NCBI GenBank assembly: GCA_947629045.1
Contig: CANRCF010000034.1
Coordinates: 1-64,000, forward strand
DNA from: an uncultured Clostridia bacterium
GTDB lineage: Bacteria > Bacillota > Clostridia > TANB77 > CAG-508
Direction of reading: 5' to 3'
Length of the DNA stretch: 64,000 nt
The translations under genes were made by a program, and so were the position numbers. Shown one piece after another: positions 2,550 through 20,488 of this stretch. Each line of letters begins with the position of its first letter. Position 1 is the first letter of the stretch. The notes beneath the pieces were generated by a model. It saw only the letters and a list, made by a program, of their open reading frames with translations, did not search any database and was not told where the DNA came from.

Positions 2550-2564
2550 TATTCGCAATAAAGA

Positions 2565-2604: not shown

Positions 2605-2605
2605 C

Positions 2606-2992: not shown

Positions 2993-3138
2993 TAGATGTT
3001 CCTCCATTTAATTTTGTGTTAGTAATAAAATTACTTATGTATATTATACCATATTTTACGCACTATATCAAATCGTTGTTCCATCTATATCTTCGAGAAG
3101 GTCTATTTTAATTATTAATATAGAAACTAAATTTATTT

Positions 3139-4473
3139 CTAATTTACCCATTCAAAAGAATCAGCAATTTTACTTACTGTTTTTTGTAGTTCTGCATCAT
3201 CATCTAAATTAAAACTATATGCATCTATGCTAGCAAGTAAATTACCATTCACCATATAATAAATATACTCTACTTGAGCAGGGTTTTCATTAAATACAAT
3301 TTTTATTTTTAAGCAATCATAACCTTTACTTGATTTTACTATTTCATCTTCATAAATTGATGGCTTCTCTTCTGATGACTCAATAGATTCTTGCATTGTG
3401 TCTTTGATATCCTGTATTGTTTTAAATTTTGAATCATCTATTTCATTATAACCTACATTAAGATATGCAGGATATTTTGAATAATCCCCTTCTTCAATTT
3501 CTTCATCTACTTTTGGCTCAGGTGTGTTTATGTAATTAGTATAACTCCATCCTGATTGATAATAATTCGTAAATTCTTCCCAATTTTTACTTACTTCAAA
3601 ACTTACTACTTCATCTGAAACTTGAACTGGCTTCATGTTTTCATATTGTACATAAGCAAAGTTTCCAACTATTACTAATACAAAAATTATGGCTACTACT
3701 ATAGTTATAATTTTAGATTTTTTCTTCCTTTTTTCTAAAGTTTGCTTACCTTCTGCTTCTTGTGAATAATAAAATCTACCTTTTGATTTTTTTACAATTC
3801 CTAAAGATTTTAAATATGATAATGCTTCTTTTACTTCTGGTTTTTCATTAATTTCTGCATTTAAATCATCTTTTAATATTCCATTTTCTTTTTCAACTGC
3901 ATTATATTTTTCAAAAATAGGTTTTACCTTCTCTATTGCTGAATTTTTAGCTTTTTCTATTTCTTCTGCATTTCCTAAATCAATATTTTCTGTTTGACCA
4001 TTTTTCATTTTTCTCTTAATATTGGCAGTAATTGCACTAGCTCCAAGTAATGTAAATACTACTGATATTAATCCATCTCGTGTTATTCCATCTATAAATT
4101 CAGAATCTGAATATAAAAGCTTCATTGTATCCATACTTACTGTAAGTCCATTATTATGTAATAAAATAGCTGGTATTACAACAAAAGTAGTCAATGCAAC
4201 AATTAATACTGATAGTATCATTATAATTGCAGGCAATGCTTTAGTCATCTTTCCTCTGAATAGTTTGTAACCATAAAATTCACCTGCAGCGATGATTATT
4301 GCTAATGCAGATAACATCATATTTCCATACACATACATTAGTACCCAAGGAACTGTTGCAATTAATCCGCCAATTATTGCACCTATAATTCCTGTAATAT
4401 AACTGCCTTTAACCTTCTTTTTTTCTTCTTTTGTTTTAATAAATTCATTAGAATTGTTTTCTTGATCTTCCAT
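3139..4473 (-). CDS. Hypothetical polytopic membrane protein
   Basis: Several hydrophobic helices at the N-terminus and centre. AAAGGGG SD before the second ATG. Confidence 0.45.
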   Translation of the reverse strand: MEDQENNSNEFIKTKEEKKKVKGSYITGIIGAIIGGLIATVPWVLMYVYGNMMLSALAIIIAAGEFYGYKLFRGKMTKALPAIIMILSVLIVALTTFVVIPAILLHNNGLTVSMDTMKLLYSDSEFIDGITRDGLISVVFTLLGASAITANIKRKMKNGQTENIDLGNAEEIEKAKNSAIEKVKPIFEKYNAVEKENGILKDDLNAEINEKPEVKEALSYLKSLGIVKKSKGRFYYSQEAEGKQTLEKRKKKSKIITIVVAIIFVLVIVGNFAYVQYENMKPVQVSDEVVSFEVSKNWEEFTNYYQSGWSYTNYINTPEPKVDEEIEEGDYSKYPAYLNVGYNEIDDSKFKTIQDIKDTMQESIESSEEKPSIYEDEIVKSSKGYDCLKIKIVFNENPAQVEYIYYMVNGNLLASIDAYSFNLDDDAELQKTVSKIADSFEWVN

Positions 4474-4643
4474 TTTTTCCCCTTTCATATATTTATAATT
4501 TGTTATGCCATCATTATATCATATGTTTTTACATTGTGCTATATTTTTTTATTGATTACGTTAAATATCAAATTTATTCACTTGAAGCAATTTTTGTTTC
4601 TGGGTATTTGTAAAATTAAATAATTTATAATAAAATATTTAAT

Positions 4644-4690
4644 AAAAAAATAGCAAGTATTTTATTACTTGCTATTTCTATTTTTCTAGC
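4644..4690 (-). terminator. Intrinsic terminator downstream of tRNA-Pro
   Basis: Hairpin ATAGCAAGTA-TTTTA-TACTTGCTAT, with a T-run on the minus strand. Confidence 0.5.
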
Positions 4691-4700
4691 CTTTTAAAGC

Positions 4701-4777
4701 TGGTCGAGGCGACAGGGATCGAACCTGCGACCTCATGGTCCCAAACCACGCGCGCTACCAACTGCGCTACGCCTCGA
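4701..4777 (-). tRNA. tRNA-Pro (anticodon TGG)
   Basis: Reverse complement gives a cloverleaf with acceptor TCGAGGC/GCCTCGA, GTTCGATCC T-loop, anticodon loop TTTGGGA and encoded CCA. Confidence 0.85.
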
Positions 4778-4884
4778 TTTTTTAGGTACTTATATACTAT
4801 AACATATTTTTTCTTACTTTGCAAGATTTTTTTGAAATTTTCCATTGAATATTTTTAATGTTCATGCTATAATATTTATGCTAT

Positions 4885-4961
<77 letters not shown>

Positions 4962-4964
4962 AGT

Positions 4965-5010
4965 AGAAAGAGCTTTTGTATTTTATCGCAAAAGCTTTTA
5001 TTCTACTTTT
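4965..5010. terminator. Bidirectional terminator
   Basis: Inverted repeat AGAGCTTTTG...CAAAAGCTTTT plus outer GTAGAA/TTCTAC, flanked by T-runs. It sits between tRNA-Arg (+) and the Rieske gene (-). Confidence 0.5.
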
Positions 5011-5016
5011 AATTAA

Positions 5017-6592
5017 CTATTCTATCTCCACTTTTTCCAACTCATAAATGCTAGGTGCATAAATTGATTTACCTGTATAATCAAACCTTGAACCATGGCA
5101 TGGGCAATCCCATGTTTTTTCTAGGTTATTCCATGTTAGTTCACAGCCTAAATGTGTGCATACTAGCTTAACTGCATATAATTTTCCTTCAGACTCTTTA
5201 AAAATTCCTATCTTTTTTCCATCTACTTCTACCACTCTTGCATCTCCCACTTTTATTTCTTTTATGGTAGCTTCTGGAACTTTAAATTTTTCAATAACTA
5301 ATGATTTTACTACTTCCTTTATCATGTTTCCCATTTCTTGATAGTTTTTAATTGGTTTTAATCTCGTAGCAGTAAATACTTCTTCATCGGCATTTACTTT
5401 CCCTAAAATTTTGTCTACTATAATATTTGCAGCTATATTTGAAGTTGTCATTCCCCATTTTTTATAACCAGTTCCAACATAAACATTTGGCATTAAGCTT
5501 GAAAATTCTCCTATATATGGAATTTTATCTAGTGAAATACAGTCCTCTGTACACCATTTATATTTGATTTTGCTATCTGGATAAATTTGTTTTGCTATTT
5601 CTAAAAGTTTATTATATTTATCAGACATATCATCTTTTTCACCTGTTTTATGGTCCAAACCTGCAACAATTAGTAAGTATTTATCTCCATCTTTTGTCAT
5701 TCTAAAAGACATTGTTGGTAATTCACTATTTATATACATTCCTTTAAATAATTCATTTGGAACTTCTACTGCAATAACATATGACATAGACTGATACATT
5801 TTTAAAAAGTAATATCCCGGGAAGTTTATAATTGGATAATGTGTTGCAATTACAACATACTTTGCTTTTACTTTATTACCACTTTCTGTTATAACCTCAT
5901 ATTCGTCATTTTCTTTTTTTATGTCTACTGCTTTTGTGTTTTCAAAAATCTTGACACTTCCATGATTCTTGCCATTTTCAACAAATTCTGTATCATCCTT
6001 TTTATTTTCAGAAACTTCTGTATTATTACTTCGCATTGAATTTACCAAACCTTCTGCATATTTGCAAGGGTTAAATTGTGCTTGATTTTTGAATTTTATT
6101 GCACCTAAGATTGAAAGTGGAAGTTCTATTTCTTCTACAAATTCTGCATCTAGACCTAAACTATTTACCGCTTCTACCTCTTTTTTTATTTTAGGAATTT
6201 CTTGCTCTTCCTGCGTAAATACATAAGCATCTTGTTTTTCAAATTCACAGTCTATTTGTTCTTCTTTTATAATTTCCTCTATATTTTTAATTGCTTTCTC
6301 ATTTGCTTCTAAATATTGTTTTGCTTTTTCCTTTCCCTGTGAATTTAAAAGATAATCATAAAAAAGCCCATGCTGACTTGTTATTTTAGCAGTTGAATTT
6401 CCGAGTAGTATGTGTACATAATTCTGCTTTTTCTAATAATACTACTCTTAAATTTGTTTTTGATAGATAATATGCTGTTGAAAGTCCTGTAAGTCCTCCA
6501 CCAATAATACATACATCTGCTTCTTCATCTTTTTTTAAGCTTTCAAATTTTTGTTTTTCTTCTTTTACACTATTTATCCAATATGACGCCAT
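5017..6592 (-). pseudogene. FAD-dependent oxidoreductase with a C-terminal Rieske [2Fe-2S] domain (YhfW-like), interrupted by a +1 frameshift near 6403
   Basis: The N-terminal ORF (6386..6592) carries the GxGxxG FAD fold (CIIGGGLTGL). The downstream frame reads open from 6432 with DAO-family sequence (STAKITSQHGLFYDYLL...FNPCKYAEGL) and Rieske CTHLGC...CPCHGS. The two frames overlap at 6386..6432. Confidence 0.65.
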
Positions 6593-6752
6593 TTTTATCC
6601 TCTTTTCTATTTTACATAATTTAATTATGTAAAAATTTCCTTAGATTTCTATTAAATCGTTTTTTAATACATATTGAAATATGTAATTTTGTAATTATTT
6701 ATAAAGAATTATTTTTTATTTTTAATTTTCAATTAAATTAAAAAGTTGCATT

Positions 6753-6792
6753 TTAAAATGCTAATGAAAGTATTCCCTTCATTAGCATTTTT
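6753..6792. terminator. Intrinsic terminator hairpin
   Basis: Perfect 13-bp inverted repeat AAATGCTAATGAA/TTCATTAGCATTT with a 9-nt loop, then TTTATAC. Confidence 0.5.
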
Positions 6793-6802
6793 ATACAAGT
6801 AT

Positions 6803-7243
6803 TTATTTTGCTAATTTAATCTCATTATCTATATAAATTTTATATTTCTTTATTATAAAGCATGAAACAAATATTAAAAATATAGATAAGCTTAATAAAA
6901 AATTTTTTAAACTAAAGTCTTTTTCTGAAATTTTTGATATTAAATTTGTTCCAATTATTTGTTCATAATCTATAGTCGTTCTCTTTATTCCTTTATTTCC
7001 TTTATATATTATATCTATTTTAATATCCTCTATTTGATGATAATATTTATCTTTCATTAGAAATATTATGCCTTCGCAATTTATTTCTGGGCATCTACTA
7101 ATTAAAATATCCTTTACTTCATTATCACAAAAAACAATATTTTTTCTTACAAGGATTAAAAAGCTAAATATCATATAAATTAAAATTATTATAAATACTA
7201 TAATAAGTAAAATTCTATTTAATATAATCCTATTTCTCCTCAT
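6803..7243 (-). CDS. Hypothetical membrane protein, third gene of the HTH-DUF2975 operon
   Basis: Hydrophobic N-terminal segments. Its ATG overlaps the upstream TGA stop (ATGA). Confidence 0.4.
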   Translation of the reverse strand: MRRNRIILNRILLIIVFIIILIYMIFSFLILVRKNIVFCDNEVKDILISRCPEINCEGIIFLMKDKYYHQIEDIKIDIIYKGNKGIKRTTIDYEQIIGTNLISKISEKDFSLKNFLLSLSIFLIFVSCFIIKKYKIYIDNEIKLAK

Positions 7244-7443
7244 CTCTCCATTCCAAAATATCTCCGTGGTTGACAATTTAGTACTTTACAGATTGCATCT
7301 AATGTAGAAAAACGAATTGCTTTTCCCTTATTAGTTTTCAAAATAGATAAATTCGCCATAGAAATTCCTATCTTTTCAGAAAGCTCTGAAGAAGATATTT
7401 TTCTTTTTGCCATCATCACATCTAAATTCACAATAATAGCCAT
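7240..7443 (-). CDS. Small XRE/Cro-type HTH transcriptional regulator (YozG-like)
   Basis: About 67 aa with an HTH signature (SSELSEKIGISMANLSILKTNKGKAIRFSTLDAICKVL) typical of the YozG family. It follows a DUF2975 membrane gene. Confidence 0.7.
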   Translation of the reverse strand: MAIIVNLDVMMAKRKISSSELSEKIGISMANLSILKTNKGKAIRFSTLDAICKVLNCQPRRYFGMER

Positions 7444-7461
7444 CTTCCTCACCCTTTCTTT

Positions 7462-7917
7462 TTAAATAGTTAATTCATTTTCTTCTTTATATTGAATTGC
7501 CTCTTTTAATAATTCTGATAAAATATATGCACCAAGCCATGCCACTGCAAATATTCCTATTATAACTACTGCAAAAACTGATGTGATAAAGAAAATTCCT
7601 ATAATAAACTCTATCATAATTATTAGTGAGCAAATTGAAATTATTTTTAAGTTTTGTACATTCTCTATTTTAAATGGATCTCCTTCTCCTAATGTATGGA
7701 ATATTTTTATAAATCTATATACTATTATAAGTGCTGGGACACCTGCTGCGTATAGTATTGCAAGTGCTGGATAGTAATTAATTTGTGGATGCATCCATTC
7801 TGAATATTTCTGTAATATGTATGGAAGTCCTAATACTACAATAATTCCAATAACAAATAATAATTTTAAGCATAATTCAATAAATGTACTTAAGCTTTTC
7901 TCCCCTTTTACTTTCAT
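7462..7917 (-). CDS. DUF2975-like membrane protein
   Basis: Four TM helices, a GDPF motif, and the conserved pairing with a YozG-like HTH regulator. Confidence 0.5.
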   Translation of the reverse strand: MKVKGEKSLSTFIELCLKLLFVIGIIVVLGLPYILQKYSEWMHPQINYYPALAILYAAGVPALIIVYRFIKIFHTLGEGDPFKIENVQNLKIISICSLIIMIEFIIGIFFITSVFAVVIIGIFAVAWLGAYILSELLKEAIQYKEENELTI

Positions 7918-8016
7918 GTTTTTTCTCCCCTCTCATGATATGTTTATAATGTTTATTTGTGTAAAATATATTTTTATAAACACATTATTTATATTTTAAC
8001 ACCTTCAATTATGTTT

Positions 8017-9531
8017 TTAATATTGTCTTGTAAAATTTGGATTATAACTATTGTTTTCAAGTTTCATATCTTCTAATAATTTTCTAGCATTCCATCTTGA
8101 ATAATTCCATTGAGTGAAGCTATCTTCTTCTGATAATTTTTCCTTTAAGCCTTTAAAATATAATTCTAATTGATATTTTAATTTTACATCATCTGTTTTT
8201 TCATATAATTTTATTACTTCTTCTAATCCATCTTCTTTTGTTTGCATTAAATATACGACATCTAAGGAAACATTGTCAATATCATTTAAATATCTATTAA
8301 TATTTTGTTTAGCTATTATTTGCGATATATTGCTAAAATTCATTACTAAATACATTACTGTTACAATAATTAAGTATGATTTCCATGGCATGAAATTATC
8401 TTTTAAAATATAAATAATAGTTGGAATCATTAATATTCCTTCTGTTATTAATGCAAAGTAAACCAAAATTCTTAAAAATGTATATCCATATGCCTCACCA
8501 TATAAGTTCATTCTTAAAAATGCTGATATTAAAATTATAATTGTAGCAATAGCTAAAACTAAATTCATGAACTTTCTATAATAAATTTGATATTTTGTAC
8601 TTTGAATTGTATTTTTAGTTGTTACTACCATAATTATAAAGTTAATTATGGAAACTGCCATTAGTTGAAAAAATCCTTCTCTTGCATAATGCGCATATGA
8701 AAATGTTCCATTTTCCACTTGAAGTAAGCTTTTTACTTGTATTATACAAAACGCAATATATATAAAGTTAAGAACTGTTACTATTGTGTTTAGAATAATA
8801 GTTTCTATTTTAATTTGTATAGCTTTTTCTTCTTTGTTGCTCCATGGATTTTTCTTTAATAAGTTCATTATGAAGCTTATTAAATATATAGTTAAAACTA
8901 CTGTGATACTTACTCTCATGCAGATTTCAAGCCATACTCTTTTATCTAACATTTGATTAATTTTTTCTATTAATCCCCAAAATATACTGCCTATTCCATT
9001 TGCGAAATCAGCATCAGCAGATGCTAGTAGCATTGTAACTATTATAAGTAATGGTACAGATGCAACAATTCCTACTATAATTTGTTCAATCATTTTTTTA
9101 TTCTTTGACTCTAATTTATCTACGTTTTGCTTTACTGGAAATATCCTTCTTATAGCATGCAAAGCTTTAGAAAAATATATAAACGGCTTTGTAAAAAGTA
9201 TACAAATTCTTCTTATTACAAATTCTAGTTGATATTTTGCTTGCATTACATCAAGTAACATAATACCATATAAGATTAACATAACTAAAATATTTAATAC
9301 TTTAAAAAATGTATTTTGATAAATTGCATATGTAATTGAAAGTAGTATTATGGCTATTCCTACTAAATATCCTCTTCTGTTTTTTACTTTTTTATATTTT
9401 TCTAGTAAGTAAATTGTAAAGCACAAAAATGGTAACACAAATATTAACATTGATATACCTAATTTTTGACCAAAAAATAATATAGTAGCTAAAATACTAA
9501 ATAATAAACTTGCGATAACTGCAAATTTCAT
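8017..9531 (-). CDS. Large polytopic membrane protein (DUF4153/DUF4173-like)
   Basis: About 12 predicted TM helices. The YAREGFFQL motif recalls the DUF4153/4173 families. Confidence 0.45.
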   Translation of the reverse strand: MKFAVIASLLFSILATILFFGQKLGISMLIFVLPFLCFTIYLLEKYKKVKNRRGYLVGIAIILLSITYAIYQNTFFKVLNILVMLILYGIMLLDVMQAKYQLEFVIRRICILFTKPFIYFSKALHAIRRIFPVKQNVDKLESKNKKMIEQIIVGIVASVPLLIIVTMLLASADADFANGIGSIFWGLIEKINQMLDKRVWLEICMRVSITVVLTIYLISFIMNLLKKNPWSNKEEKAIQIKIETIILNTIVTVLNFIYIAFCIIQVKSLLQVENGTFSYAHYAREGFFQLMAVSIINFIIMVVTTKNTIQSTKYQIYYRKFMNLVLAIATIIILISAFLRMNLYGEAYGYTFLRILVYFALITEGILMIPTIIYILKDNFMPWKSYLIIVTVMYLVMNFSNISQIIAKQNINRYLNDIDNVSLDVVYLMQTKEDGLEEVIKLYEKTDDVKLKYQLELYFKGLKEKLSEEDSFTQWNYSRWNARKLLEDMKLENNSYNPNFTRQY

Positions 9532-9732
9532 TTCGAATTCCCTCTTTCTAAATAGTTATATATTTAGAATCTCGCGCGAGTTCCTTCTAACTGTATTTTA
9601 TATTACTATATTATTTTATGTTTGTCAATACTTTTTTATCGTTTTTCAATAAATTTATTTTTTATTTATATTTTTTCACCTCTTATTTTCTTTTTATTAG
9701 TAATATTTATGGGCAAAATTCTTTGCATAAAT

Positions 9733-10878
9733 TTAATTTTTTTTACCTAAAACCACTTGAATATTGACCTCTCTCCTATTCCTAAGTAGTTTAATTTGTA
9801 CAATATCGCCTGTATTTTTACTATAAATATATCTTCTTAAATCACACATTTTATTTATTTCATTGCCATCAACTTCTAATAATATATCTTTTTCATGTAT
9901 TCCATATTGTTCTGCTGGTGAGTTTTTATTTACTTGCACAACATAAACGCCACTTTCTATATCTAAATTAGTTTCTAAATATGGAATTACGCTTTTGTCA
10001 TATGCAAAAATACCTAAATAAGCCTCATCAAATTTTCCAGTCGTTACAAAACTTTGAATAATAACTTTTGCTGTATTTATTGGAATTGCAAATCCTATTC
10101 CTTCTGCAGAAGTTATTTTTACACTATTTATTCCAATTACTTCTCCGTTAATATTTATAAGAGGGCCTCCACTATTTCCCGGATTTATTGTTGCATCTGT
10201 TTGAATTAAATCCTCCATATATGATGTTTTTTCTTCTTCCTCTAATAAAATTGTTCTATTTACTGCACTTACAATACCAGAAGTTACAGTTCTTTGAAAT
10301 TCAAACCCAATAGGGTTTCCAATCGCATAAACATTTTGCCCCACTTTTGTTTGTGAAGAATCTCCTAAGGTTACATATGGCAAATTCTTAGCATTAATTT
10401 TTACAACTGCTATATCTAAATTACTGTCAGACCAAACTACATTTCCCGAATAATTTTTTCCACTGGGAAGTGTGACATAGCAATTACTATACTTTTCTCC
10501 CGAAACATGCTCATTTGTTAATATATATCCATTTTCAGAAACTATCATTCCTGTTCCTATGCCAATTTTAGATATACTATCTTCCAAAAATATAGTTGTA
10601 CCATTATTTTTTAGCTTTGATATTCCTACTATGCTTTTATTTACTTCTTCTATTACTTGCGTTATATCTTTTTCTTCATTTTGAATTTCTTCTACCGTTT
10701 GAGAAAGCCTTGTGGCCTCCACTTTTGGCTGTTCTATCTTACTACTATTGCTAATATCAATATTCATATATAGTGTATATGAAAGTGCTACAATCAATAT
10801 TAGCAGAACAAGTATTATTGTTGTGCAGATATATTTACTTATTCGCTTTCTTTTTGATTTTTTTAAATATTCTTCCAT
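9733..10878 (-). CDS. htrA: HtrA/DegP-family serine protease (trypsin-like S1C plus PDZ)
   Basis: GNSGGPLIN active-site motif, catalytic His (TNEHV) and Asp, a C-terminal PDZ domain and an N-terminal TM anchor. The start is placed at MEEYLKK, which has an AAAGGAAG SD. Confidence 0.8.
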   Translation of the reverse strand: MEEYLKKSKRKRISKYICTTIILVLLILIVALSYTLYMNIDISNSSKIEQPKVEATRLSQTVEEIQNEEKDITQVIEEVNKSIVGISKLKNNGTTIFLEDSISKIGIGTGMIVSENGYILTNEHVSGEKYSNCYVTLPSGKNYSGNVVWSDSNLDIAVVKINAKNLPYVTLGDSSQTKVGQNVYAIGNPIGFEFQRTVTSGIVSAVNRTILLEEEEKTSYMEDLIQTDATINPGNSGGPLININGEVIGINSVKITSAEGIGFAIPINTAKVIIQSFVTTGKFDEAYLGIFAYDKSVIPYLETNLDIESGVYVVQVNKNSPAEQYGIHEKDILLEVDGNEINKMCDLRRYIYSKNTGDIVQIKLLRNRREVNIQVVLGKKN

Positions 10879-11198
10879 AGTTTTCTTCCTTTCGGGACCA
10901 GGTCCCAATCCCCATTTTTGTCCTACTTGGGACAAGTCACCTTTAATTTTCATTAAAAAACTTTTTTATAATTTTTTCCAATTTATATTTTTTTAATCAT
11001 TTCAAATATTAAAAATCAGTTTAAACAATAAAAATCAATTTAATTTGAAGCGCGTAAAAAGTAATTTTAAACATAAAAAATCCCAATAGAATAATTCATA
11101 CTGGGACTTAAAATTTTTTGAAAATTATTAGTTGCTTTTTTATTTTTTAATTCATTAATTATTTCGCTTATTTTTAAAATTACTAATTATTTTTCTAA

Positions 11199-12920
11199 TT
11201 AGTTGCTTTTCTTAATTTCTTCATATCTCTTTACTTTTTGTGTAGTTGTTTTTGCAAGAGGTTCGGTTGTAACTATAATTTCTTTAATATGCTTTACATC
11301 TGGTAAAGTTTGATTTACTTTTTTAACTTCTTGCCAAATAATTTCTCGTTTTTCTTCATCTGTCTTTTCACCATAAAGATTTTTCATTGTTTCTTCATTA
11401 TACACAAGTTTTGCACAAAGAGTAGTGTCCATTGATGTTTTGTTTCTTGCAAATACCATACTTTCTTCTACAACTGGTATTTGGTTAAGTAAAATTTCTA
11501 GCTCTTGTGGATAAACATTTTTGCCGTTTTTTAAAACAATAACATCATTTTTTCTTCCACAAATATATAAGAAACCATCTTTATCTAAATAACCATAATC
11601 CCCTGTTGAAAACCAGCCATCATGCATTGCCTTTTTAGTTGCTTCTTCATTTTCATAATAGCCTAGCATAACACTTGGACCTTTAACAAGAATTTCTCCA
11701 ACTTCTTTTTCATCTGGATTTTCAATTTTTACATCTACATTGAATAATGGAAGACCGATAGAGCCGGGTCTTTTTTCTTTATCTGTTTCAGCAGATACAA
11801 CAGGTGATGTTTCTGTTAAACCATAACCTTGTATTAAATCTACGCCAAAATCATTAAATCCATGTATAATTTTTTTATCTAATGGTGCTGATCCAACAAA
11901 AACTACTCTTAACCTTCCTCCAAAATTATCAATAATTGGTTGAAATACTTTTTTTCTTAAATCTATTCCTATTTTACATAGCATCTTTGTAACAACAACC
12001 ATTGTTTTCATTAAACCTTTTTTGCCTTGTTCTTCTATTCCCTTCCATACTTTTTTATGGATATTTTCTAAAACTAATGGAACTGCCACAAAAACTGTTA
12101 CTTTATATTCATTCATATTTTTTTGAATGTATTTTAATCCATCACAGAATGCAACTGTTACACCAAAATAAATTCCAAAAAGGAAAGTAATAGTACATTC
12201 AAAAGTATGGTGAATTGGTAAAAATGAAAGAAGTGTATCTGTTGGAAACATTTGTACATAGCTTGCAATAGCTTGAATATTACTACAAATATTTTTTTGT
12301 GATAATAAAACACCTTTCGAAATATTTGTTGTTCCAGATGTAAATAGCAAAATTGAAACTGCTTCTCTATCTATTTCAATTTTCTCATAATCGCGATTTC
12401 CTTCTTCCCTTAACTTTCTTCCTTCTTCTAATAAATTAGAGTATGCTAAAATGCCATCTTCGTTAGCATTATCCATACATATAATATGCTTTAAATCACT
12501 ATTTTTTAAATTTAGTAATGTTTTAACATATTTTTCTTCACAAACAATAGCTTCTGCACCGCTTCTAATTACTAAAGATTCTAATTCATTTTCTGGTAAT
12601 GCCTTATCTAATGGAACAATTATCATTCCTCCAGTAGTTACAGCTAAATATGTAGTACACCATTCATAACGGTTATTTCCAACTACTGCTATTTTTTTGC
12701 CAGCTAGTCCCATGCTTAATAGTTTTGTTGATAGTGCTTCTATATCATTTTTAAATTGTGCATAAGTTTTATTTATATATTCTATATTTTCTTTTCCGTT
12801 TTTTGCTTTATATTTATAGGCTATATTTTCTGGGTATTTTTCTGCTGTTTTTCTAATAAGTTCTCTAAAATCCTTAATTTCATCTACCTGATAAACAACT
12901 CTGCTCTTTTCTTTTTTCAT
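11199..12920 (-). CDS. AMP-dependent synthetase/ligase (long-chain fatty acyl-CoA or acyl-AMP ligase), divergent from the NRPS
   Basis: AMP-binding motifs LFTSGTTNISKGV, GYGLTETSP and GWFSTGDYGYLDKDGFLYICGRKND. Confidence 0.8.
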   Translation of the reverse strand: MKKEKSRVVYQVDEIKDFRELIRKTAEKYPENIAYKYKAKNGKENIEYINKTYAQFKNDIEALSTKLLSMGLAGKKIAVVGNNRYEWCTTYLAVTTGGMIIVPLDKALPENELESLVIRSGAEAIVCEEKYVKTLLNLKNSDLKHIICMDNANEDGILAYSNLLEEGRKLREEGNRDYEKIEIDREAVSILLFTSGTTNISKGVLLSQKNICSNIQAIASYVQMFPTDTLLSFLPIHHTFECTITFLFGIYFGVTVAFCDGLKYIQKNMNEYKVTVFVAVPLVLENIHKKVWKGIEEQGKKGLMKTMVVVTKMLCKIGIDLRKKVFQPIIDNFGGRLRVVFVGSAPLDKKIIHGFNDFGVDLIQGYGLTETSPVVSAETDKEKRPGSIGLPLFNVDVKIENPDEKEVGEILVKGPSVMLGYYENEEATKKAMHDGWFSTGDYGYLDKDGFLYICGRKNDVIVLKNGKNVYPQELEILLNQIPVVEESMVFARNKTSMDTTLCAKLVYNEETMKNLYGEKTDEEKREIIWQEVKKVNQTLPDVKHIKEIIVTTEPLAKTTTQKVKRYEEIKKSN

Positions 12921-13126
12921 ATTTTTTCCATCCCTTCTAATGTGCTATAAATACACAAAATCAAGTAAAAATTGAAATTTTATTTTATCAATATATTACT
13001 TATAAAATTTTTCAATCTAATTTTACAATAAAAGGAAATTTTTTGCAATATTTTGATTGATTTTTATATTCAGTTAGTATATACTTTCATTAGTAAATAT
13101 TTAGTATGCGAAGGGGTTTTACTATA

Positions 13127-16100
13127 ATGGAGAAAAAGCTATATTCTTTAACAAATCCACAAAAGTCAATTTATTATACAGAAGAATATTCTAATCACAC
13201 TAATTTAAATAATATTAGTGGAAACATTATAATAAAAGAGAAGGTTAATTTTCCATGTTTGGAAAAGGCCTTAAATTTATATGTTAAAAAAAATGATGCT
13301 ATTAGAATAAGAATTGTAATGTCTAATGGTATTCCTAAACAATATATTCACAATTACGAACCTTTTTCTATTCAACTTGTTGAATTGGAAAATAAAGAAA
13401 ATTTAAAAGAATTAAATAAAACTCTTGTAGAAAAAACTTTTGATTTTATTGACTCAAATTTATTTTCGTTTACTCTATTTAAATTTCCTGATTCTACAGG
13501 TGGATTAAATGTTACTTTCCACCACATTATTTCCGATGCTTGGACTATGAGTTTATTTATTGATGAAGTAATGAATTTATATAATAGTTTAATTAATAAT
13601 GAAGAAATAGATTCTGCTTTGAATCCATCTTATTTAGACTATATTTCTTCAGAAGATGAATATATTTCTTCTAATAAATTTGAAAAAGATAAAGAATTTT
13701 GGAATAACGTTTTTACAACTTCTCCTGAACTTGCAAAAATAACTAATCATGTTGCTTCTTCTACTTCTAAAGCTATAAGAGAAACTTTTCATTTAGAAAA
13801 AGGTGTATATGAGCAAATTGATAATTTTTGCAAAAATCATCGTTGTTCTATCTATACATTTTTTATGTGTATTTTTTCTATTTATCTTTCAAAAATCAAT
13901 AATATTGAAGCACCTATTATTGGTACTCCAGTTTTAAATCGTACTAATTTTAAAGAGAAAAATACAGCTGGTATGTATATTAGTACAATACCTTTTAAAT
14001 CAGTAGTAAAACCTGATACTACTTTTGATGAGTTTCTAAAAAATGTTAATTTAATGCAAATGTCAACTTATAGACATCAAAAATACCCATATACTCTATT
14101 ATTAGAAGAATTAAAAGAGAAATATGATTATACTCAAAATTTATATGATGTTGTATTATCTTATCAAAATGCTCGTGATGATAGTAAAAATTCCAAAGTT
14201 TCTTATGAATCTGAATGGCTATTTACAGGTCAAACAGTAGATACTTTAGAAATACATTTTTATGATATGGATAATACTGGTGATTTTGACATTTTTTATG
14301 ATTATCAAATTTCACAACTAACAAAGGATGATGTACATCAAATTCACGAACGCATTTTAAGTATAGTTTCACAAGTTATCGTGTCTTCAAATATTTTATT
14401 AAAAGATATAAAGATTGTTACTAACAATGAAGAAATTCAAATAAAGCAAAACTTTAATAATTCATTGATTGAATATGATAAAAATAAAAGTATAGTTGAA
14501 GTATTTGAAAATCAAGTAGAAAAAAATGCTGATGACATTGCACTTGTTTTCGAAGATAAAAGTCTTACATATAAAGATTTAAATAAAAAAGCAAATCAAA
14601 TCGCTCATTTTCTAAAAAGTCAAAACATAAAACCTAATGATAAAGTAGCAATATTCTTACCAAGATGTATAGATTTAATAGTATCAATGCTAGCTGTAAA
14701 AAAAGTGGGATGTGCGTATTTACTAATAGAAAGTAGTTTACCTATAGATCGTATAAAATATATGTTAGAAAATGCGAATGCTTCTTTAGTAATTACAAAT
14801 AAAGAATTATCTAATAAAGAGTTCTCTAATTGTGTTATTCTTGATGATATTTTTTTTGAAAACTTACCTATTTCAAATTTAGGTATGCCTTATTTTCCAG
14901 AAGATCCTTTATCAATTGTATATACTTCTGGTTCTACTGGCATTCCTAAGGGTATACTATTAAAAAACTTCAGTCTTTTGAATTTGGTATTAGGGTATTG
15001 TCATTCTATGAATGCTAATAATCTTAATAATTTTATTAGTACCTGTTCAGTTTCATTTGATATGTTTGCTGCCGAAATTTGGATTCCACTTTTACTTGGT
15101 AAAAAATTAGTGCTTGCAAATGATGAAGAATCAAAAAACCCTATTCTTCTTTCTTCTTTAATTGAAAAGGAAGATATAGAATTTATGCTTATTACTTCTT
15201 CTAAAATGAATTTGCTATTGTCAAATTCTGATATTAGTAAATGCTTACAGCATTTAAAAGCTATTCAGTTAGGTGGAGAAGTTTTAAATCCCGAATTCTA
15301 TAATAGGTTAATTCATTATACTAATGCAAAAATTTATAATGGATATGGTCCTTCTGAAACAACATCTTGTGCCACATGTAAATTTGTTAATTCAGCTGAT
15401 AATATTACAATTGGAAGACCTTTACCAAATGTTCAAGTATATATTTGCAATAATTTATTAAACCTATGTCCTCCTAATGTAATTGGAGAATTATGTATTG
15501 CTGGCGATGGAGTTTCTTATGGATATATAAATCAACCGGATTTAACTAAAAAAAGTTTTGTTCCAAATCCTTTTGGTGTAGGATTATTATATAAAACTGG
15601 TGATTTAGCTAAATTTTTACCAAACGGAGAAATTGCATACATTGGTAGAAATGATTCACAGGTAAAAATAAGAGGACTTAGAATAGAATTAGAAGAAATT
15701 AATAAAGTAATTCTTAATTTTCCTAATGTTAATAACTGTATAACTGTTGTAAAAAAGATAAATGGAATAGACAGTATATGTTGTTATATTGTATCCAATG
15801 CAATTAATATAAATGACTTAAAAGAATATGCAAGTAAAAAACTACCATATTATATGGTTCCATCTCATTTTGCTAAGTTAGATAAATTGCCTATTACTCT
15901 TAATGGTAAAATCGATTTAAAGGCTTTGCCAGAAATTACTGTAAATTACAAATATATTGCGCCTGAAACACAAATTGAAAAAGCAATTGCTACATTATGG
16001 GAAAATTTATTAAATTTAAAACGAATTAGTGTTTCTAGTAATTTCTTTGAGCTCGGTGGAGATTCTCTTAATGCAATTAAATTTATAGCTGAACTAGAAA

Positions 16101-19100
16101 ATGAACTTGGCATAAGATTACAAATAAAAGATATATTTGCTTTCCCTACTATTAGTAGTTTATCAAATTATATCGATAAGATGCCATTAAACCAGAAAAA
16201 TAATGAACAGATAGAAAAAGTTCAAAATCAAACTTCTTACATTACAAGCTCTGCTCAAAAAAGAATTTATTTTACTGTAGAAAAAGAAGGGGCTAAATCT
16301 GTAACTTATAACACACCTGGTGGGCTTATGTTCGAAAAAATACCTGATATAGAAAAATTGCAAGATAGTTTCACAAAATTAATTGAAACAAATGAATCTT
16401 TGCGTACATATTTCGTTTTAGAAAATAATGAATTAAAACAAAAAATAATTCCACCTTTTGATTATAAATTAGATGTAGTTCATTATAACTCTACAAATAT
16501 GGATGAACTATTTGATGAATTTATTAAGCCTTTTGATTTGTCAATAGCACCTTTATTTAGAGCAAAACTTGCTATATTGAATAATAAAAAAGCAATTTTA
16601 CTATTAGATATACATCATATTATTTGTGATGGAGAATCTATACAGATTTTTCTAAAAAAATTATCTGCTTATTATGAAGGCAAAATAGTAGATGAAAATT
16701 TAATAGATTATAAGGATTATGCTTGTTGGGAAAACAAAATAATAAATTCTAAGGAATACAAAAAAATTGAAGAATATTGGTTAAAAAAGTTTGAAGGAGA
16801 AATTCCAACTTTAAATATGCCAACTAACTTTACAAGACCTGCTACTCTTTCTTTTGAGGGAAATAAAATAAGTATGAATATGGACAAATCCGATAAAATT
16901 TATGCTTTATGTAATCAATTACATATTACTCCATATCAGTTCTTTTTAAGCATTTATTATATCCTACTTTATAAATATACTGGTCAAGAGGATATAATTG
17001 TTGGTACTCCTGTTGTTGGAAGAGATTTAAAGGAATTACATTCTATTATTGGTATGTTTGTAAATACATTAGCATTAAGAGAAAAAATTATTCCTCAAGA
17101 AACAGTATTTGACTTTATGCATAGAGTTTCACAAAATCTTTTAGAAGATTTTGAAAATGATTCTTTTCCTTTTGATGAATTAATAAAAAAATTAAATTTT
17201 GAAAAAGATGTAAGCAGAAACCCGTTATTTGATACAATGTTTGTTTATCAAAATGAAGGTATGAAGAAAGTAAAACTAGGAGATTTAACTGCAAAATATT
17301 ATTTACCTAAATCTTCTATTTCAAAATTCGACTTTACTTTAGAAATTTTACCTGATGGCAACAATTTCTTATGTAATTTAGAATATAATACAAATTTATA
17401 TACTTCTACTTTTATGCAATCATTGCTAGAACATTACTTAGAATTAACATCTAAAATTACAGAAAATCCTCATATTTTTGTTTCTGAAGTTTCTATGTTA
17501 TCTTCTAAAGAAACAAATCAGATTTTAAAGGATTTTAATTCTAATAGTTCTTGTTTATTTGAGAATGAACAAGTTATATCTCTATTTGAGAAGCAAGTAG
17601 AAGATAATAAAGATAAAACTGCTTTAATATTTGAGAATAAAAATTTATCTTATGATGAAATAAATAAAAAAGCAAATCAGCTAGCAAATTTACTTATCTC
17701 TAAAAAAATTGCAAGAAATTCTATAATTGGTATTTTGCTTCCACGAAGTCCTGAATTAATTATCAGTATGCTTGGTGTTTTAAAATCAGGATCTGCATAT
17801 ATGTTAATTGATTCAAGCTTGCCTTATGATAGAATTTTATATATGTTAGAAAATAGTAATGCTTCCTTATTGCTAACAAATCATAATATGAAAAACATTG
17901 ATTTTCCTAAACAATGTTTTATTGATGATGAAAATCTAAATTTATACAGAAATGATAACCTTTGCTTGTACTCAGAAGATGAAGATTTATTTAGTGTCAT
18001 ATATACTTCTGGGTCTACTGGTATGCCAAAAGGCGTTTTACTAAAACGTAAAGGTGTTATGAATTTATTACTTAACCATCATTTAAAAATGAATATTAAT
18101 GAATGTAACAATTTTATTAGTATTAGCACCATTTCATTTGATATGTTTATGGTAGAAACTTTTATGCCACTTCTTTCAGGAAAAACATTAATTTTAACAA
18201 ATGACGAAGAACAGAAAATACCAGTCACCATGGCAGATATAATAAACAAGTACAATATAGATTTTATTTTAACAACGCCTAGTCGTATCGAATTATTACT
18301 AGATTCAAATATTCAAAATTGCTTAAAACATTTGAAAGTTATTCAACTTGGTGGCGAAGTATTTACTCCTGAACTTTACAGTAGACTTTCTAAAGTAACT
18401 TCTGCTAATATTTATAATGCTTATGGACCTACAGAAGTAACAGCTTGTTGTTCTTGCAGTAGAATTACTGATTCTAGAAATATTACTATTGGAAAACCAT
18501 TTGATAATGCACCTATATATATATGTAATAAAGATATGGGACTTTGTCCTATTGGAGTTCCTGGAGAAATTTGTGTTGGTGGTAAAGGCATAGCAAAAGG
18601 TTATTTAAGTAACCCAGAATTAACTAAAAAAAGTTTTATTGCTAATCCTTTTGGTGAAGGTGTGATTTATAAAACCGGTGATATCGGATATTATACTTGC
18701 GATGGTAATATTGTTTATATTGGTAGACGTGATTTTCAAATTAAAATAAGAGGCTTAAGAGTAGAATTATCTGAAATAGAAAATAAAATATTAGAAATAC
18801 CAAACATAAAAAATTGTGCTGTTATTTATAAAAAAGAGCAAAGCACTTCTTATCTTGCTTGTTTTTATACTGTAAATTCTACTATAGATGCTTCTACTAT
18901 TCGTACGGAGTTGAAAAAAAGCTTACCTTTATATATGGTTCCAAAATATATGATTTGCTTAGATACATTACCTATTACAGCAAATGGAAAAGTAAATAAA
19001 AAATTACTAGAAGAATATAGCATTGAAAAAGGAGAAAATAAAAATTATGTAGCCCCACAAACAGAGCTTGAAAAATTGCTTTGTCATGTTTGGGAACAGT

Positions 19101-20470
19101 TATTAGATACTACTGTTGGAATTGATGATGATGTTTTCGAATTAGGAGCAGATTCATTGTTGGCAATAAAATTTAAAACTGAATTATTAGCTTATAATAT
19201 AAATATACCTTACTCTGATTTATTTAAATATTTAACCGTAAGAGAATTATGTAAAATGCATGGTGAGGAATTTTCCGATAATACAACTATTTATGATGAT
19301 GAAATAAAACAAATTTCGTCTATAGTTGAAAAAAATTGTATAAAAAATATAAAACAATCTTTTATAATAAATAACTCTACGAATAATGTATTATTATTAG
19401 GAGGAAATGGTTTTGTTGGCATTCATATTTTATATGAATTAATTAAGCAAGACAACGGAAATATTTATTGCATTATTCGTGATAAAAATAATAAAACAGC
19501 ATTTGAGCGTTTGACTAATGTTTTGCACTTTTATTTTGGTAATGAATTAGATGAATTTATTAATAAACGAATTTTTATTATTTCTGCTAATGTTACTGAA
19601 GAAAATTTCGGATTATCTGCAAAAAAATTTGAAGAATTAACAAATAATATTTCAATTGTAATTGATTCTGCTGCAATGGTAAAACATTATGGTAATAGTG
19701 AAAAATTTAAACATATAAATGTAGATTTAACAAGAGAATTGGTAAACTATTGTATTAAATATAAGAAACGTTTATTATACATATCAACTACTAGTATTGC
19801 TGGAAATAGCGCTGATTCTAGTCAAAATGTTTTTTCTGAATCATGTTTTTATATAGGTCAGCAATTAAATAATACATATATAAAGAGTAAATTTGATGCT
19901 GAAAAATTGGTGCTTTCTGGTATTTCTAATGGCTTAGAAGCACAAATTCTACGTCTAGGTAATATAACTAGTAGATATAAAGATGGAAAATTTCAAATAA
20001 ATGCAGAAGAAAACGCATTTTTAAACAGACTTAAGTCTTTTGTCCAAATAGGATTAATTCCAAAAAATTTAGAAAAAATGAATTTGGAGTTCACACCTGT
20101 AGATAGTTGTGCAAATGCTATAGTCAAAATTATGCAAAATTATAATAAGAAACTTTCTATTTTCCATTTGTATAATGACTCTTATATTAAAATGAAGGAA
20201 TTTATAAGCTTTGCTAATAAAAATGGTATTTCGTTAAAATTTGTTGAAGATAATGATTTTAATAAAAAAATTAATGATATGCTTAAAGATAGTAAAGAAA
20301 AAGAAAAATTGTCAGGTATTGTAACAGACCTTGACTATATTAACAAAGTATCAGATAATGATACTGCAATAACAACTTGCGAATTTACAAAAATGTTCTT
20401 ACATCAAATTAACTTTAATTGGCCTATTATAGATAATAATTATTTAAAAAAATATTTATCTAATCTTTAA
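13127..20470 (+). CDS. Two-module non-ribosomal peptide synthetase, C-A-T-C-A-T-R (terminal thioester reductase)
   Basis: C domains HHIISDAW and HHIICDGES. A domains YTSGSTGIPKG/NGYGPSETT/YKTGDL/GRNDSQVKIRGLRIE and YTSGSTGMPKG/NAYGPTEVT/YKTGDIG/GRRDFQIKIRGLRVE. T domains GGDSL and GADSL. C-terminal SDR-type R domain LLLGGNGFVGIHIL with YxxxK. The start is placed at MEKK (RBS AAGGGG). Confidence 0.9.
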   Translation: MEKKLYSLTNPQKSIYYTEEYSNHTNLNNISGNIIIKEKVNFPCLEKALNLYVKKNDAIRIRIVMSNGIPKQYIHNYEPFSIQLVELENKENLKELNKTLVEKTFDFIDSNLFSFTLFKFPDSTGGLNVTFHHIISDAWTMSLFIDEVMNLYNSLINNEEIDSALNPSYLDYISSEDEYISSNKFEKDKEFWNNVFTTSPELAKITNHVASSTSKAIRETFHLEKGVYEQIDNFCKNHRCSIYTFFMCIFSIYLSKINNIEAPIIGTPVLNRTNFKEKNTAGMYISTIPFKSVVKPDTTFDEFLKNVNLMQMSTYRHQKYPYTLLLEELKEKYDYTQNLYDVVLSYQNARDDSKNSKVSYESEWLFTGQTVDTLEIHFYDMDNTGDFDIFYDYQISQLTKDDVHQIHERILSIVSQVIVSSNILLKDIKIVTNNEEIQIKQNFNNSLIEYDKNKSIVEVFENQVEKNADDIALVFEDKSLTYKDLNKKANQIAHFLKSQNIKPNDKVAIFLPRCIDLIVSMLAVKKVGCAYLLIESSLPIDRIKYMLENANASLVITNKELSNKEFSNCVILDDIFFENLPISNLGMPYFPEDPLSIVYTSGSTGIPKGILLKNFSLLNLVLGYCHSMNANNLNNFISTCSVSFDMFAAEIWIPLLLGKKLVLANDEESKNPILLSSLIEKEDIEFMLITSSKMNLLLSNSDISKCLQHLKAIQLGGEVLNPEFYNRLIHYTNAKIYNGYGPSETTSCATCKFVNSADNITIGRPLPNVQVYICNNLLNLCPPNVIGELCIAGDGVSYGYINQPDLTKKSFVPNPFGVGLLYKTGDLAKFLPNGEIAYIGRNDSQVKIRGLRIELEEINKVILNFPNVNNCITVVKKINGIDSICCYIVSNAININDLKEYASKKLPYYMVPSHFAKLDKLPITLNGKIDLKALPEITVNYKYIAPETQIEKAIATLWENLLNLKRISVSSNFFELGGDSLNAIKFIAELENELGIRLQIKDIFAFPTISSLSNYIDKMPLNQKNNEQIEKVQNQTSYITSSAQKRIYFTVEKEGAKSVTYNTPGGLMFEKIPDIEKLQDSFTKLIETNESLRTYFVLENNELKQKIIPPFDYKLDVVHYNSTNMDELFDEFIKPFDLSIAPLFRAKLAILNNKKAILLLDIHHIICDGESIQIFLKKLSAYYEGKIVDENLIDYKDYACWENKIINSKEYKKIEEYWLKKFEGEIPTLNMPTNFTRPATLSFEGNKISMNMDKSDKIYALCNQLHITPYQFFLSIYYILLYKYTGQEDIIVGTPVVGRDLKELHSIIGMFVNTLALREKIIPQETVFDFMHRVSQNLLEDFENDSFPFDELIKKLNFEKDVSRNPLFDTMFVYQNEGMKKVKLGDLTAKYYLPKSSISKFDFTLEILPDGNNFLCNLEYNTNLYTSTFMQSLLEHYLELTSKITENPHIFVSEVSMLSSKETNQILKDFNSNSSCLFENEQVISLFEKQVEDNKDKTALIFENKNLSYDEINKKANQLANLLISKKIARNSIIGILLPRSPELIISMLGVLKSGSAYMLIDSSLPYDRILYMLENSNASLLLTNHNMKNIDFPKQCFIDDENLNLYRNDNLCLYSEDEDLFSVIYTSGSTGMPKGVLLKRKGVMNLLLNHHLKMNINECNNFISISTISFDMFMVETFMPLLSGKTLILTNDEEQKIPVTMADIINKYNIDFILTTPSRIELLLDSNIQNCLKHLKVIQLGGEVFTPELYSRLSKVTSANIYNAYGPTEVTACCSCSRITDSRNITIGKPFDNAPIYICNKDMGLCPIGVPGEICVGGKGIAKGYLSNPELTKKSFIANPFGEGVIYKTGDIGYYTCDGNIVYIGRRDFQIKIRGLRVELSEIENKILEIPNIKNCAVIYKKEQSTSYLACFYTVNSTIDASTIRTELKKSLPLYMVPKYMICLDTLPITANGKVNKKLLEEYSIEKGENKNYVAPQTELEKLLCHVWEQLLDTTVGIDDDVFELGADSLLAIKFKTELLAYNINIPYSDLFKYLTVRELCKMHGEEFSDNTTIYDDEIKQISSIVEKNCIKNIKQSFIINNSTNNVLLLGGNGFVGIHILYELIKQDNGNIYCIIRDKNNKTAFERLTNVLHFYFGNELDEFINKRIFIISANVTEENFGLSAKKFEELTNNISIVIDSAAMVKHYGNSEKFKHINVDLTRELVNYCIKYKKRLLYISTTSIAGNSADSSQNVFSESCFYIGQQLNNTYIKSKFDAEKLVLSGISNGLEAQILRLGNITSRYKDGKFQINAEENAFLNRLKSFVQIGLIPKNLEKMNLEFTPVDSCANAIVKIMQNYNKKLSIFHLYNDSYIKMKEFISFANKNGISLKFVEDNDFNKKINDMLKDSKEKEKLSGIVTDLDYINKVSDNDTAITTCEFTKMFLHQINFNWPIIDNNYLKKYLSNL

Positions 20471-20488
20471 AAGAGGAGGAAACAAAAA

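Follow-up and report, generated by a model that had tools for sequence, protein, structure and literature searches.

Why is a nonribosomal peptide synthetase (NRPS) that looks built to release a peptide aldehyde followed at once by a histidine kinase gene, and does this kinase read the product of its neighbour? The question is raised by a locus on contig CANRCF010000034.1 of an uncultured Clostridia bacterium, which we analysed within a stretch of 64,000 nucleotides (nt), here called the window. The locus consists of a two-module NRPS ending in a reductase, a histidine kinase, a response regulator and a divergently transcribed acyl-CoA-ligase-like gene. The biosynthetic core is a further member of the known peptide-aldehyde NRPS family of gut Clostridia; what is new is its conserved, co-diversifying coupling to a kinase, and neither the coupling nor the co-variation is described in the literature that we searched on gut peptide-aldehyde NRPSs. 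We give an even chance to the reading that NRPS and kinase form an operon with an accessory ligase, and that the kinase senses the lipopeptide aldehyde or alcohol made by its partner NRPS, with an effect on the turnover of cyclic di-GMP (c-di-GMP) through the adjacent regulator.

Pairing of the synthetase with a co-varying kinase

Relatives of the locus were gathered by a species-genome protein search, an exact homologue look-up, a metagenome scan with the alignment of the first condensation domain (C1) and a reverse search with the kinase core. The resulting 94 loci fall into 58 clusters at 95% nucleotide identity, all with 24-32% G+C and all from low-GC gut Clostridia. A kinase was counted when it lay within ~200 nt on the same strand, and the 55 clusters with enough downstream sequence were scored. 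A kinase directly follows the reductase (R) domain in 54 of these 55 clusters, with a DHp/CA core 57-90% identical to that of the window. In the exception, L002, the kinase is missing and the NRPS (356-7691) is frameshifted into open reading frames (ORFs) of 1864 and 594 amino acids (aa); a Schlafen/AlbA_2-helix-turn-helix gene (8269-9642) occupies the place where the kinase would stand. The pair is kept in differing genomic contexts (rearranged in L019, elsewhere in L023 and L106), and all three picks of the reverse search were located next to this NRPS type. An earlier note on this DNA, made from the sequence alone, had reported the histidine kinase 18 nt downstream and suggested co-regulation. 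The linkage is real and conserved in the relatives, and the word understates it, the sensor domain co-diversifying with the specificity of the adenylation (A) domain.

The kinase of the window combines a seven-transmembrane (7TM) sensor (residues 7-227), a PAS domain (230-346) and a DHp/CA core from residue 350 (Pfam and hydropathy), with the boxes AHNLKTP (H-box, nt 21620), NNMISNAIQ, DNAGGL and GTGLGL. In the relatives, the same chromosomal site holds one-module, two-module or three-module enzymes in different species, and the sensor type follows the number of modules. Of the 26 clusters of one-module loci (C-A-T-R; C, condensation; T, carrier), 25 have an 'alt' sensor with about six transmembrane segments and an extracytoplasmic loop. 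Among two-module loci, the HisKA_7TM-PAS sensor is present in 25 of 26 clusters, namely 24 and L047, assigned by hand inspection with its 7TM match further downstream, L002 being the exception; all three clusters of three-module loci also have the 7TM sensor. The 'alt' and 7TM sensors are unrelated in sequence, and their kinase cores are 67% identical. Split kinases were detected in several widespread relatives, L104 (7818-9831), L105, L106 (7965-9783), L107, L108 and L022 (18559-20356), with a sensor ORF of 339-404 aa and a core ORF of 204-276 aa that either overlap by ~30 nt or are separated by 16 nt. Random sequencing errors do not account for the splits, since identical split alleles are found again in dozens of samples.

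In the human-gut strains L033-L038, L041 and L042, C1 is 95-100% identical at the amino acid level (~80% in L042), the kinase cores 96-100% and the PAS domains mostly 96-99%. The first adenylation domains (A1) of the same strains are only 40-70% identical, with Val, Thr, Gly-like and Pro codes and one unassigned class, and their 7TM sensors are 48-70% identical. About 1.4 kb is replaced within A1 in these strains (for instance, 11490-12900 in L035), the replaced stretch being sharply delimited at the C1/A1 and A1/T1 borders, and these replacements are natural A-domain swapping.

A-domain specificity and the kinase sensor change together in the relatives beyond background divergence. Among strains with C1 at 95-100% and the core at 96-100% identity, the same A-domain code goes with sensors 97-100% identical and a different code with sensors 39-70% identical (one pair, 89%), and two strains that share a Val code have sensors 100% identical though their flanks differ by 5-8%. 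Sliding identity of L033 and L034 against L035 detected exactly two divergent islands, A1 and the R-domain end with the 7TM sensor, with ~4 kb of DNA at 96-100% identity between them. Both islands are covered by one long tract in L041 and L038, which in L038 reaches from T1 to PAS. L091 and L093 are 100% identical in both C1 and the kinase core and 39% identical in the sensor, L077 against L083 is a further independent example of co-variation, and between the one-module loci L070 and L071 a 4.2-kb cassette has been swapped from the end of C1 to the sensor/DHp junction, with flanks 90% and 99% identical. On de-duplicated loci, sensor identity followed A-code similarity after core and C1 identity had been regressed out (partial Mantel r 0.56 for 28 loci and 0.63 for 24 loci, with none of 5000 permutations reaching the observed value), although Mantel tests are liberal under relatedness such as that of these loci, which share ancestry within one low-GC clade.

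Linkage and strain history could produce the correlation with the A-domain code as well, if the kinase senses a precursor (a free amino acid or fatty acid) or envelope stress, or if the 7TM sensor diversifies under phage or immune pressure. The islands lie only ~4-5 kb apart and a single tract spans both in L041 and L038, all loci come from one clade, and A1 was swapped between L035 and L037 with little change in the sensor. But the islands of L033 and L034 against L035, with 96-100% identical DNA between them, call for two recombinations or for selection of matched pairs, the cassette ends precisely at the sensor/DHp junction, and the correlation survives control for core and C1 identity. We regard this explanation as very unlikely.

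The synthetase and its predicted product

The NRPS probably starts at the ATG at 13127, behind the ribosome-binding site GAAGGGG (13110-13116), and the resulting 2447-aa product is an exact entry in the protein collection. The domain order is C-A-T-C-A-T-R and all seven domains have their core motifs (HHxxxD twice, A3/A4/A10, the carrier Ser twice). Pfam matches were obtained to Condensation (two, 3.8e-177), AMP-binding (two, 5.2e-149), PP-binding (two) and NAD_binding_4 (1e-43), with E-values of the domains ranging from 1e-177 to 1e-26; chance is not plausible as the source of an uninterrupted 7.3-kb frame in DNA of 26% G+C with E-values down to 1e-177. The two-module NRPS ending in a reductase was found at the coordinates and with all the motifs that the earlier note had given. 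More than 100 database proteins of 2450-2490 aa have the same layout at 43-51% identity, and three-module versions of ~3510 aa are also in the database.

C1 looks like an active, starter-type domain. Its subtype was assigned by pairwise bit scores to SrfAA-type N-terminal C domains, using a SrfAA N-terminus query that was validated against the database (97-99% to B. subtilis entries, 52% to a protein named lchAA). C1 aligned over its full length with P0271, an N-terminal C domain of SrfAA type from B. subtilis, at 246 bits and 31% identity over 426 aa, and scored 210 bits with 'lchAA' (P0274), against 97 and 88 bits for the second condensation domain, C2. With 30 other N-terminal C domains C1 scored 170-400 bits, C2 with the same proteins 85-118 bits, and C1 with C2 only 101 bits; the NCBIfam model of the MxcG N-terminal C domain gave 92 bits for C1 and 48 bits for C2. 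The N-terminal position of C1 is common to all one-, two- and three-module relatives compared. Its residues H132, H133, D137 and W139 are invariant in 12 relatives from enzymes of all three sizes, and the pattern HH[LI][IV]xD[AS]W is present in 12/12 relatives and, by simple pattern search, in 110/118 homologues. The starter C domain proposed earlier is thus borne out by the grouping of C1 with the surfactin and lichenysin lipoinitiation domains, and a C domain in the first module has long been taken as a sign of N-acylation (PMC2812497).

A ranking of C1 against PDB, which pointed to an LCL domain with TycC6 on top (122 bits) and Gram-negative and actinomycete starter structures at 44-47 bits, was rejected as a test because the starter C domains in PDB are only Gram-negative and actinomycete, with no Firmicute among them; PDB 8f7f is apparently a SrfA-C elongation domain, in the same register as 2vsq. 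An exhaustive C1 search was uninformative for the subtype, since very large NRPSs are ordered by the sum of their scores and match best at the N-terminus as well as inside the protein. C2 is LCL-like and is predicted to act in elongation, with 314 bits for TycC6 (2jgp), 269 bits for the internal C domain of AusA and 189 bits for the LgrA C domain. The Pfam domain scan detected no epimerisation domain in the NRPS and, together with the LCL-like C2, this suggests that both residues should be L.

Stachelhaus codes were extracted against GrsA positions 235-517 with motif anchoring, and both belong to the unusual DMxLQG..CK class, which is very common in the NRPS family of the window. A1 matches LgrA/GrsA-type A domains in PDB at 290-570 bits. 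The sole family code that we found in the literature is DVWYLGGICK, for Met (PMC12283262). Small residues at positions 301, 322 and 330 of both A pockets suggest bulky side chains.

The PDB matches of R are the 6vtj PCP-R didomain (peptidyl carrier protein and reductase; 178 bits), the AusA R domain (4f6c, 140 bits) and MxaA (95 bits), and R also resembles a Mycobacterium NRP R domain. The entry 6vtj is labelled only 'Non-ribosomal peptide synthetase'; it is probably the Methanobrevibacter ruminantium enzyme. A C-A-T-C-A-T-R NRPS of M. ruminantium has been described as being of bacterial origin (PMC2812497). The GxxGxxG motif, the Thr of STTS and the YxxxK of R all align with AusA-R, in agreement with the thioester reductase of the short-chain dehydrogenase/reductase (SDR) type, with catalytic Tyr and Lys, that had been expected here. 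LGGNGFVG, though unusual, occurs commonly as a variant within the family, and 114/118 homologues have YxxxK.

A reductively released N-acyl dipeptide is well supported by these domain assignments, and the product is most likely an N-acyl-(L-Xaa)-(L-Xaa') aldehyde. The N-acyl dipeptide aldehyde of the earlier note agrees with the starter C1 and with R; its acylation is not new, because some members of the gut family are already reported to carry N-acyl tails (PMC8210680, PMC12327764). The analogy to pyrazinones that the same note had drawn does not hold: an N-acylated dipeptide aldehyde cannot cyclise, the amine being acylated, and the analogy would apply only if C1 were bypassed.

Such a bypass is one form of a different chemistry, in which C1 is skipped and a free dipeptide aldehyde goes on to a pyrazinone; in the other form a four-electron R yields an N-acyl dipeptide alcohol. 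Heterologous expression of gut-family clusters has reportedly given mostly pyrazinones. Two- and four-electron R domains are indistinguishable by sequence, the likeness of R extends to MxaA and the Mycobacterium domain, and the ligase is dispensable in most two-module relatives. These points are opposed by the invariant catalytic motif of C1 in a clearly conserved domain, by its grouping with a proven lipoinitiation type and by AusA, the closest characterised R domain, which makes an aldehyde (PMC8210680), and we consider a different chemistry quite unlikely.

The ligase-like protein has its best NCBIfam match to the long-chain-fatty-acid--CoA ligase PRK06187, all NCBIfam matches being under the cut-off, and in PDB it matches the CoA ligases MenE, MatB and FadD13 at ~125 bits and the fatty acyl-AMP ligase (FAAL) 3pbk at 86 bits; it appears to resemble CoA ligases more than FAALs, an assignment at the level of the class only. 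Orthologues (55-80% identity) lie directly upstream of the NRPS in 20/49 scorable clusters, with 4/26 among the two-module clusters (window included) and 16/21 among the one-module clusters. The divergent fatty acyl-AMP/CoA ligase of the earlier note is accordingly present and CoA-ligase-like, but rare beside two-module relatives. Because it is absent from 22/26 two-module clusters in which C1 is conserved, the ligase is not essential to the family and is an accessory; in loci without it, the acyl donor must come from general metabolism.

Among characterised synthetases, AusA (PznA) of Staphylococcus aureus has the A-T-C-A-T-R core too, including an LCL C domain and an R that forms an aldehyde, and its NCBIfam model is the best one for the NRPS (1504 bits, residues 379-2451). 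The AusA equivalog (NF047350) was nevertheless rejected, with a score far below the cut-off of 2500, an extra N-terminal C domain and a match that begins only at residue 379; AusA itself lacks a C domain at the N-terminus, and the free dipeptide aldehyde that it makes forms pyrazinones by cyclisation. Surfactin and lichenysin synthetases (SrfAA/LchAA) share the starter C domain, to which C1 aligns end to end, and an acyl-CoA ligase next door, but their products are macrolactone heptapeptides, whereas that of the window would be a reductively released dipeptide. The one-module relatives have the C-A-T-R layout of MxcG (myxochelin), which module 2 with R matches at 839 bits and C1 at 92 bits. 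MxcG, however, acylates lysine with dihydroxybenzoate (DHB) for a siderophore, and the window locus has no aryl-carrier or DHB genes.

Operon structure, flanking genes and genomic setting

NRPS and kinase look like one transcript, with the regulator separate, because the gap between them is 18 nt and a hairpin terminator follows the kinase. The kinase ATG at 20489 lies behind AGGAGG, and no terminator was detected between the two genes, which are closely coupled at the level of translation. The hairpin after the kinase stop has a z of -5.5, with 0/200 shuffles folding as well; the consensus terminator scan, which demands three G-C pairs, missed this AT-rich hairpin. NRPS and kinase form a probable bicistron closed by an intrinsic terminator (Table 1). 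A promoter consensus scan was uninformative in this AT-rich DNA (108 sites against 96.7 +/- 9.9 expected), and the Rfam search found no Rfam element, riboswitch or leader near the operon.

The regulator, listed from a TTG at 22496, has its probable start at the ATG at 22517. Its motifs LMILD, FHDIGK and GTGYP are intact, and it matches the NCBIfam NosR-family response regulator c-di-GMP phosphodiesterase at 208 bits, under the cut-off. It is a predicted c-di-GMP phosphodiesterase and the likely partner of the kinase, and an orthologue stands downstream of the kinase in most relatives. Between the regulator and Tex, a gene at 24134-27016 (minus strand) encodes a hybrid protein of 960 aa (HisKA-HATPase-REC-weak HPt-HD/HD-GYP), so that a second signalling protein with HD-GYP adjoins the cluster; it looks like an insertion, because no counterpart exists at the same position in the 70%-identical relatives. 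The Tex gene (27205-29380, minus strand) is apparently disrupted: its listed ORF has 550 aa and starts only at 28857, relatives have 718-735 aa, and by tblastn the frame changes near 29260. It is either a pseudogene or affected by assembly errors. Tex and ABC-F were rejected as cluster members, as they are 75-93% identical housekeeping flanks that stay in place when the NRPS block relocates.

An HtrA gene lies within 4 kb of the NRPS or the kinase in 40/58 clusters and still adjoins the kinase in the rearranged locus L019. This adjacency is suggestive for a producer of peptide aldehydes, but may be plain synteny. Upstream of HtrA (7240-9531, minus strand; also L017, L020 and L107), genes for a DUF4153 membrane protein and a DUF2975 protein and a small helix-turn-helix gene are kept in several relatives.

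The window has 24-30% G+C over most of its length. The NRPS operon (25-27%) equals its surroundings, and recent horizontal acquisition of the operon was rejected on this ground. The genes dnaA, dnaN, recF, gyrB and gyrA are all located at 49-64 kb, which identifies the window as part of a low-GC Firmicute chromosome, close to its replication origin. In the species-genome protein search, the nearest relatives were metagenome-assembled genomes labelled 'uncultured Clostridia/Clostridium' from rabbit and human gut, at ~70% protein identity. The NRPS, kinase and regulator genes (13127-23569) are on the plus strand and nearly all others up to dnaA (62440-63780, minus strand) on the minus strand, the GC skew flips in line with this change of strand, and transcription of the NRPS operon probably runs against the direction of replication. 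The region 51500-57500, between gyrB (57573-59504) and gyrA (49017-51470), is very AT-rich (17-24% G+C), with TraG-like and ParA-like genes, and resembles a mobile element that has entered the gyrBA region close to the origin. Four tRNA genes are clustered at 41903-42184 (minus strand) and followed, within 41900-48900, by a stretch of 20-24% G+C encoding a TrwB-like coupling protein and DnaB_2/DnaC-like replication proteins, which is probably an integrated element.

Table 1. Features of the locus in window coordinates, with domain and gene functions as predicted
Feature	Position	Strand	Details
HtrA-type serine protease (Trypsin_2 + PDZ)	9733..10953	-	Pfam and NCBIfam HtrA matches
Acyl-CoA-ligase-like adenylating enzyme	11199..12920	-	573 aa; Pfam AMP-binding 6.1e-68 and AMP-binding_C_3
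Divergent intergenic region, ligase/NRPS	12921..13126		206 bp; presumably holds promoters; sequence read
NRPS ORF	13106..20470	+	2454 aa
C1, predicted starter (lipoinitiation-type) condensation	13127..14419	+	Pfam Condensation; HHIISDAW 13520-13543; residues 1-431
A1, adenylation	14483..15955	+	Pfam AMP-binding; code DMALQGGSCK
T1, carrier	15983..16174	+	Pfam PP-binding 960-1023 of the 2454-aa ORF; GGDSL nt 16055, Ser nt 16064-16066
C2, predicted LCL-type elongation condensation	16226..17527	+	Pfam Condensation 1041-1474; HHIICDG 16613-16633
A2, adenylation	17585..18991	+	Pfam AMP-binding 1494-1834 and AMP-binding_C 1890-1962; code DMVLQGAACK
T2, carrier (approximate boundaries)	19080..19290	+	second Pfam PP-binding; GADSL nt 19145, Ser nt 19154-19156
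R, predicted terminal thioester reductase (extended SDR)	19385..20470	+	NAD_binding_4 1e-43; GGNGFVG 19400-19420, STTS 19778-19795, YIKSK 19877-19891
Histidine kinase	20489..22306	+	605 aa; Pfam HisKA_7TM 4e-38, PAS_9, HisKA, HATPase_c
AT-rich hairpin and U-run, probable intrinsic terminator	22318..22367	+	RNA fold -17.8 kcal/mol
Response regulator, REC + HD-GYP, RpfG-like	22517..23569	+	Response_reg 2.7e-17, HD_5 1.1e-36

Self-signal or outward inhibitor

A possible order of events begins with the ligase, which would make an acyl-CoA, and with C1, which would move the acyl group onto the amino acid on T1. C2 would then add the second L-amino acid, and R would use NAD(P)H to release the N-acyl dipeptide in aldehyde form, which might be reduced further to an alcohol. 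This aldehyde or alcohol would be the ligand of the cognate kinase, a strain-specific self-signal with pherotypes, and the kinase would signal to the adjacent REC-HD-GYP regulator and so change c-di-GMP levels.

Two known signalling designs resemble this scheme. In the agr (AgrBDCA) and ComCDE systems of Firmicutes, pherotypes rest on an adjacent producer and kinase with a shared hypervariable cassette. Here too the NRPS as candidate signal gene adjoins a polytopic kinase, producer and sensor change together and the cassette ends at the sensor/DHp boundary; because producer and kinase stay adjacent and share a hypervariable cassette with that end point, the signature is agr/com-like. The differences are that the signal of the window would be nonribosomal and that the regulator is not a LytTR transcription factor, so that the resemblance lies in working logic and not in homology, and neither AgrB/AgrD nor ComC genes were found among the window ORFs of >=100 aa that were scanned, small ORFs not being searched. 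The diffusible signal factor (DSF) design of Xanthomonas, with RpfB, RpfF, RpfC and RpfG, shares a lipid-derived signal, an acyl-CoA ligase gene (RpfB), a multi-transmembrane kinase (RpfC) and a REC-HD-GYP regulator (RpfG), a comparison drawn from general knowledge of Rpf and not from sequence tests. The window locus has no RpfF crotonase, its synthase being an NRPS that is not homologous, and RpfC is a hybrid kinase, unlike the kinase of the window.

Taken together, we suggest tentatively, at somewhat less than an even chance, a quorum-sensing-like family, undescribed before, in uncultured low-GC gut Clostridia. It would have an N-acyl amino- or peptidyl-aldehyde (or alcohol) as autoinducer, the downstream kinase as receptor, pherotypes generated by swapping of the A-domain/sensor cassette, and an output through HD-GYP to c-di-GMP.

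The locus could also be an ordinary member of the gut peptide-aldehyde family, its product an outward inhibitor of host cathepsins or bacterial proteases and its kinase incidental or sensing an unrelated cue. The published gut Firmicute family of 47 NRPS clusters (Donia/Guo et al. 2017) makes peptide aldehydes with selective inhibition of cathepsins (PMC12282076, PMC10794557), and ruminopeptin (rup) of Ruminococcus bromii is a dipeptide-aldehyde protease inhibitor (PMC12327764). The likeness to these systems lies in a gut Firmicute NRPS with a terminal reductase and dipeptide aldehydes, and the difference in the divergent acyl-CoA ligase, which is rare among two-module relatives. The frequent HtrA neighbour fits an inhibitor, and A-domain swapping alone would also diversify inhibitor specificity. 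An inhibitor, however, leaves unexplained why near-identical strains have the kinase sensor as their one further hypervariable segment, why this sensor matches the A-domain code and why the pair survives relocation to unrelated contexts; we hold a purely outward role to be somewhat unlikely. The two roles do not exclude each other and the product may do both, as lantibiotics are both weapon and inducer; protease inhibition is kept possible because the HtrA gene is so often adjacent.

Several observations weigh against a self-signal that acts through its own kinase. Publications on the family put the emphasis on inhibition of proteases (PMC12282076, PMC10794557). Co-variation is seen in relatives, while the window's own lineage offers only 70%-identical loci with the same or nearly the same codes, all loci share their clade, and L035 and L037 have Val-like and Thr-like A1 codes yet sensors 89% identical. 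On the side of the ligand, aldehyde and alcohol are not distinguishable by sequence, and the ligase is mostly lacking beside two-module enzymes despite their conserved C1. The codes DMALQGGSCK and DMVLQGAACK, whose extraction the earlier note had proposed, were both obtained but matched no substrate assignment in the literature and supplements searched. On the side of the output, some loci (e.g., L023 and the L033 group) have no regulator close to the kinase, and the regulator is an enzyme and not a transcription factor, so that no transcriptional autoinduction loop is evident. The split kinases could represent a two-polypeptide kinase, a programmed frameshift or decay, and decay would belong to the same side of the balance.

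On a conservative reading, the locus is a clean case of a reductive NRPS that is lipoinitiated and accompanied by an acyl-CoA ligase of its own, and in its family a single syntenic site holds the same enzyme in one-, two- and three-module versions. Until now, the peptide aldehydes of gut Clostridia have been interpreted as protease inhibitors aimed at the host. If every synthetase is paired with a co-evolving receptor kinase, these abundant molecules may be strain-specific bacterial signals first, which would explain the rapid A-domain swapping between strains and tie a secondary-metabolite cluster to c-di-GMP control. The locus provides a concrete ligand-receptor hypothesis, an N-acyl dipeptide aldehyde against a defined kinase, and, if this is true, a nonribosomal counterpart of the agr pherotypes in organisms that have never been cultured.

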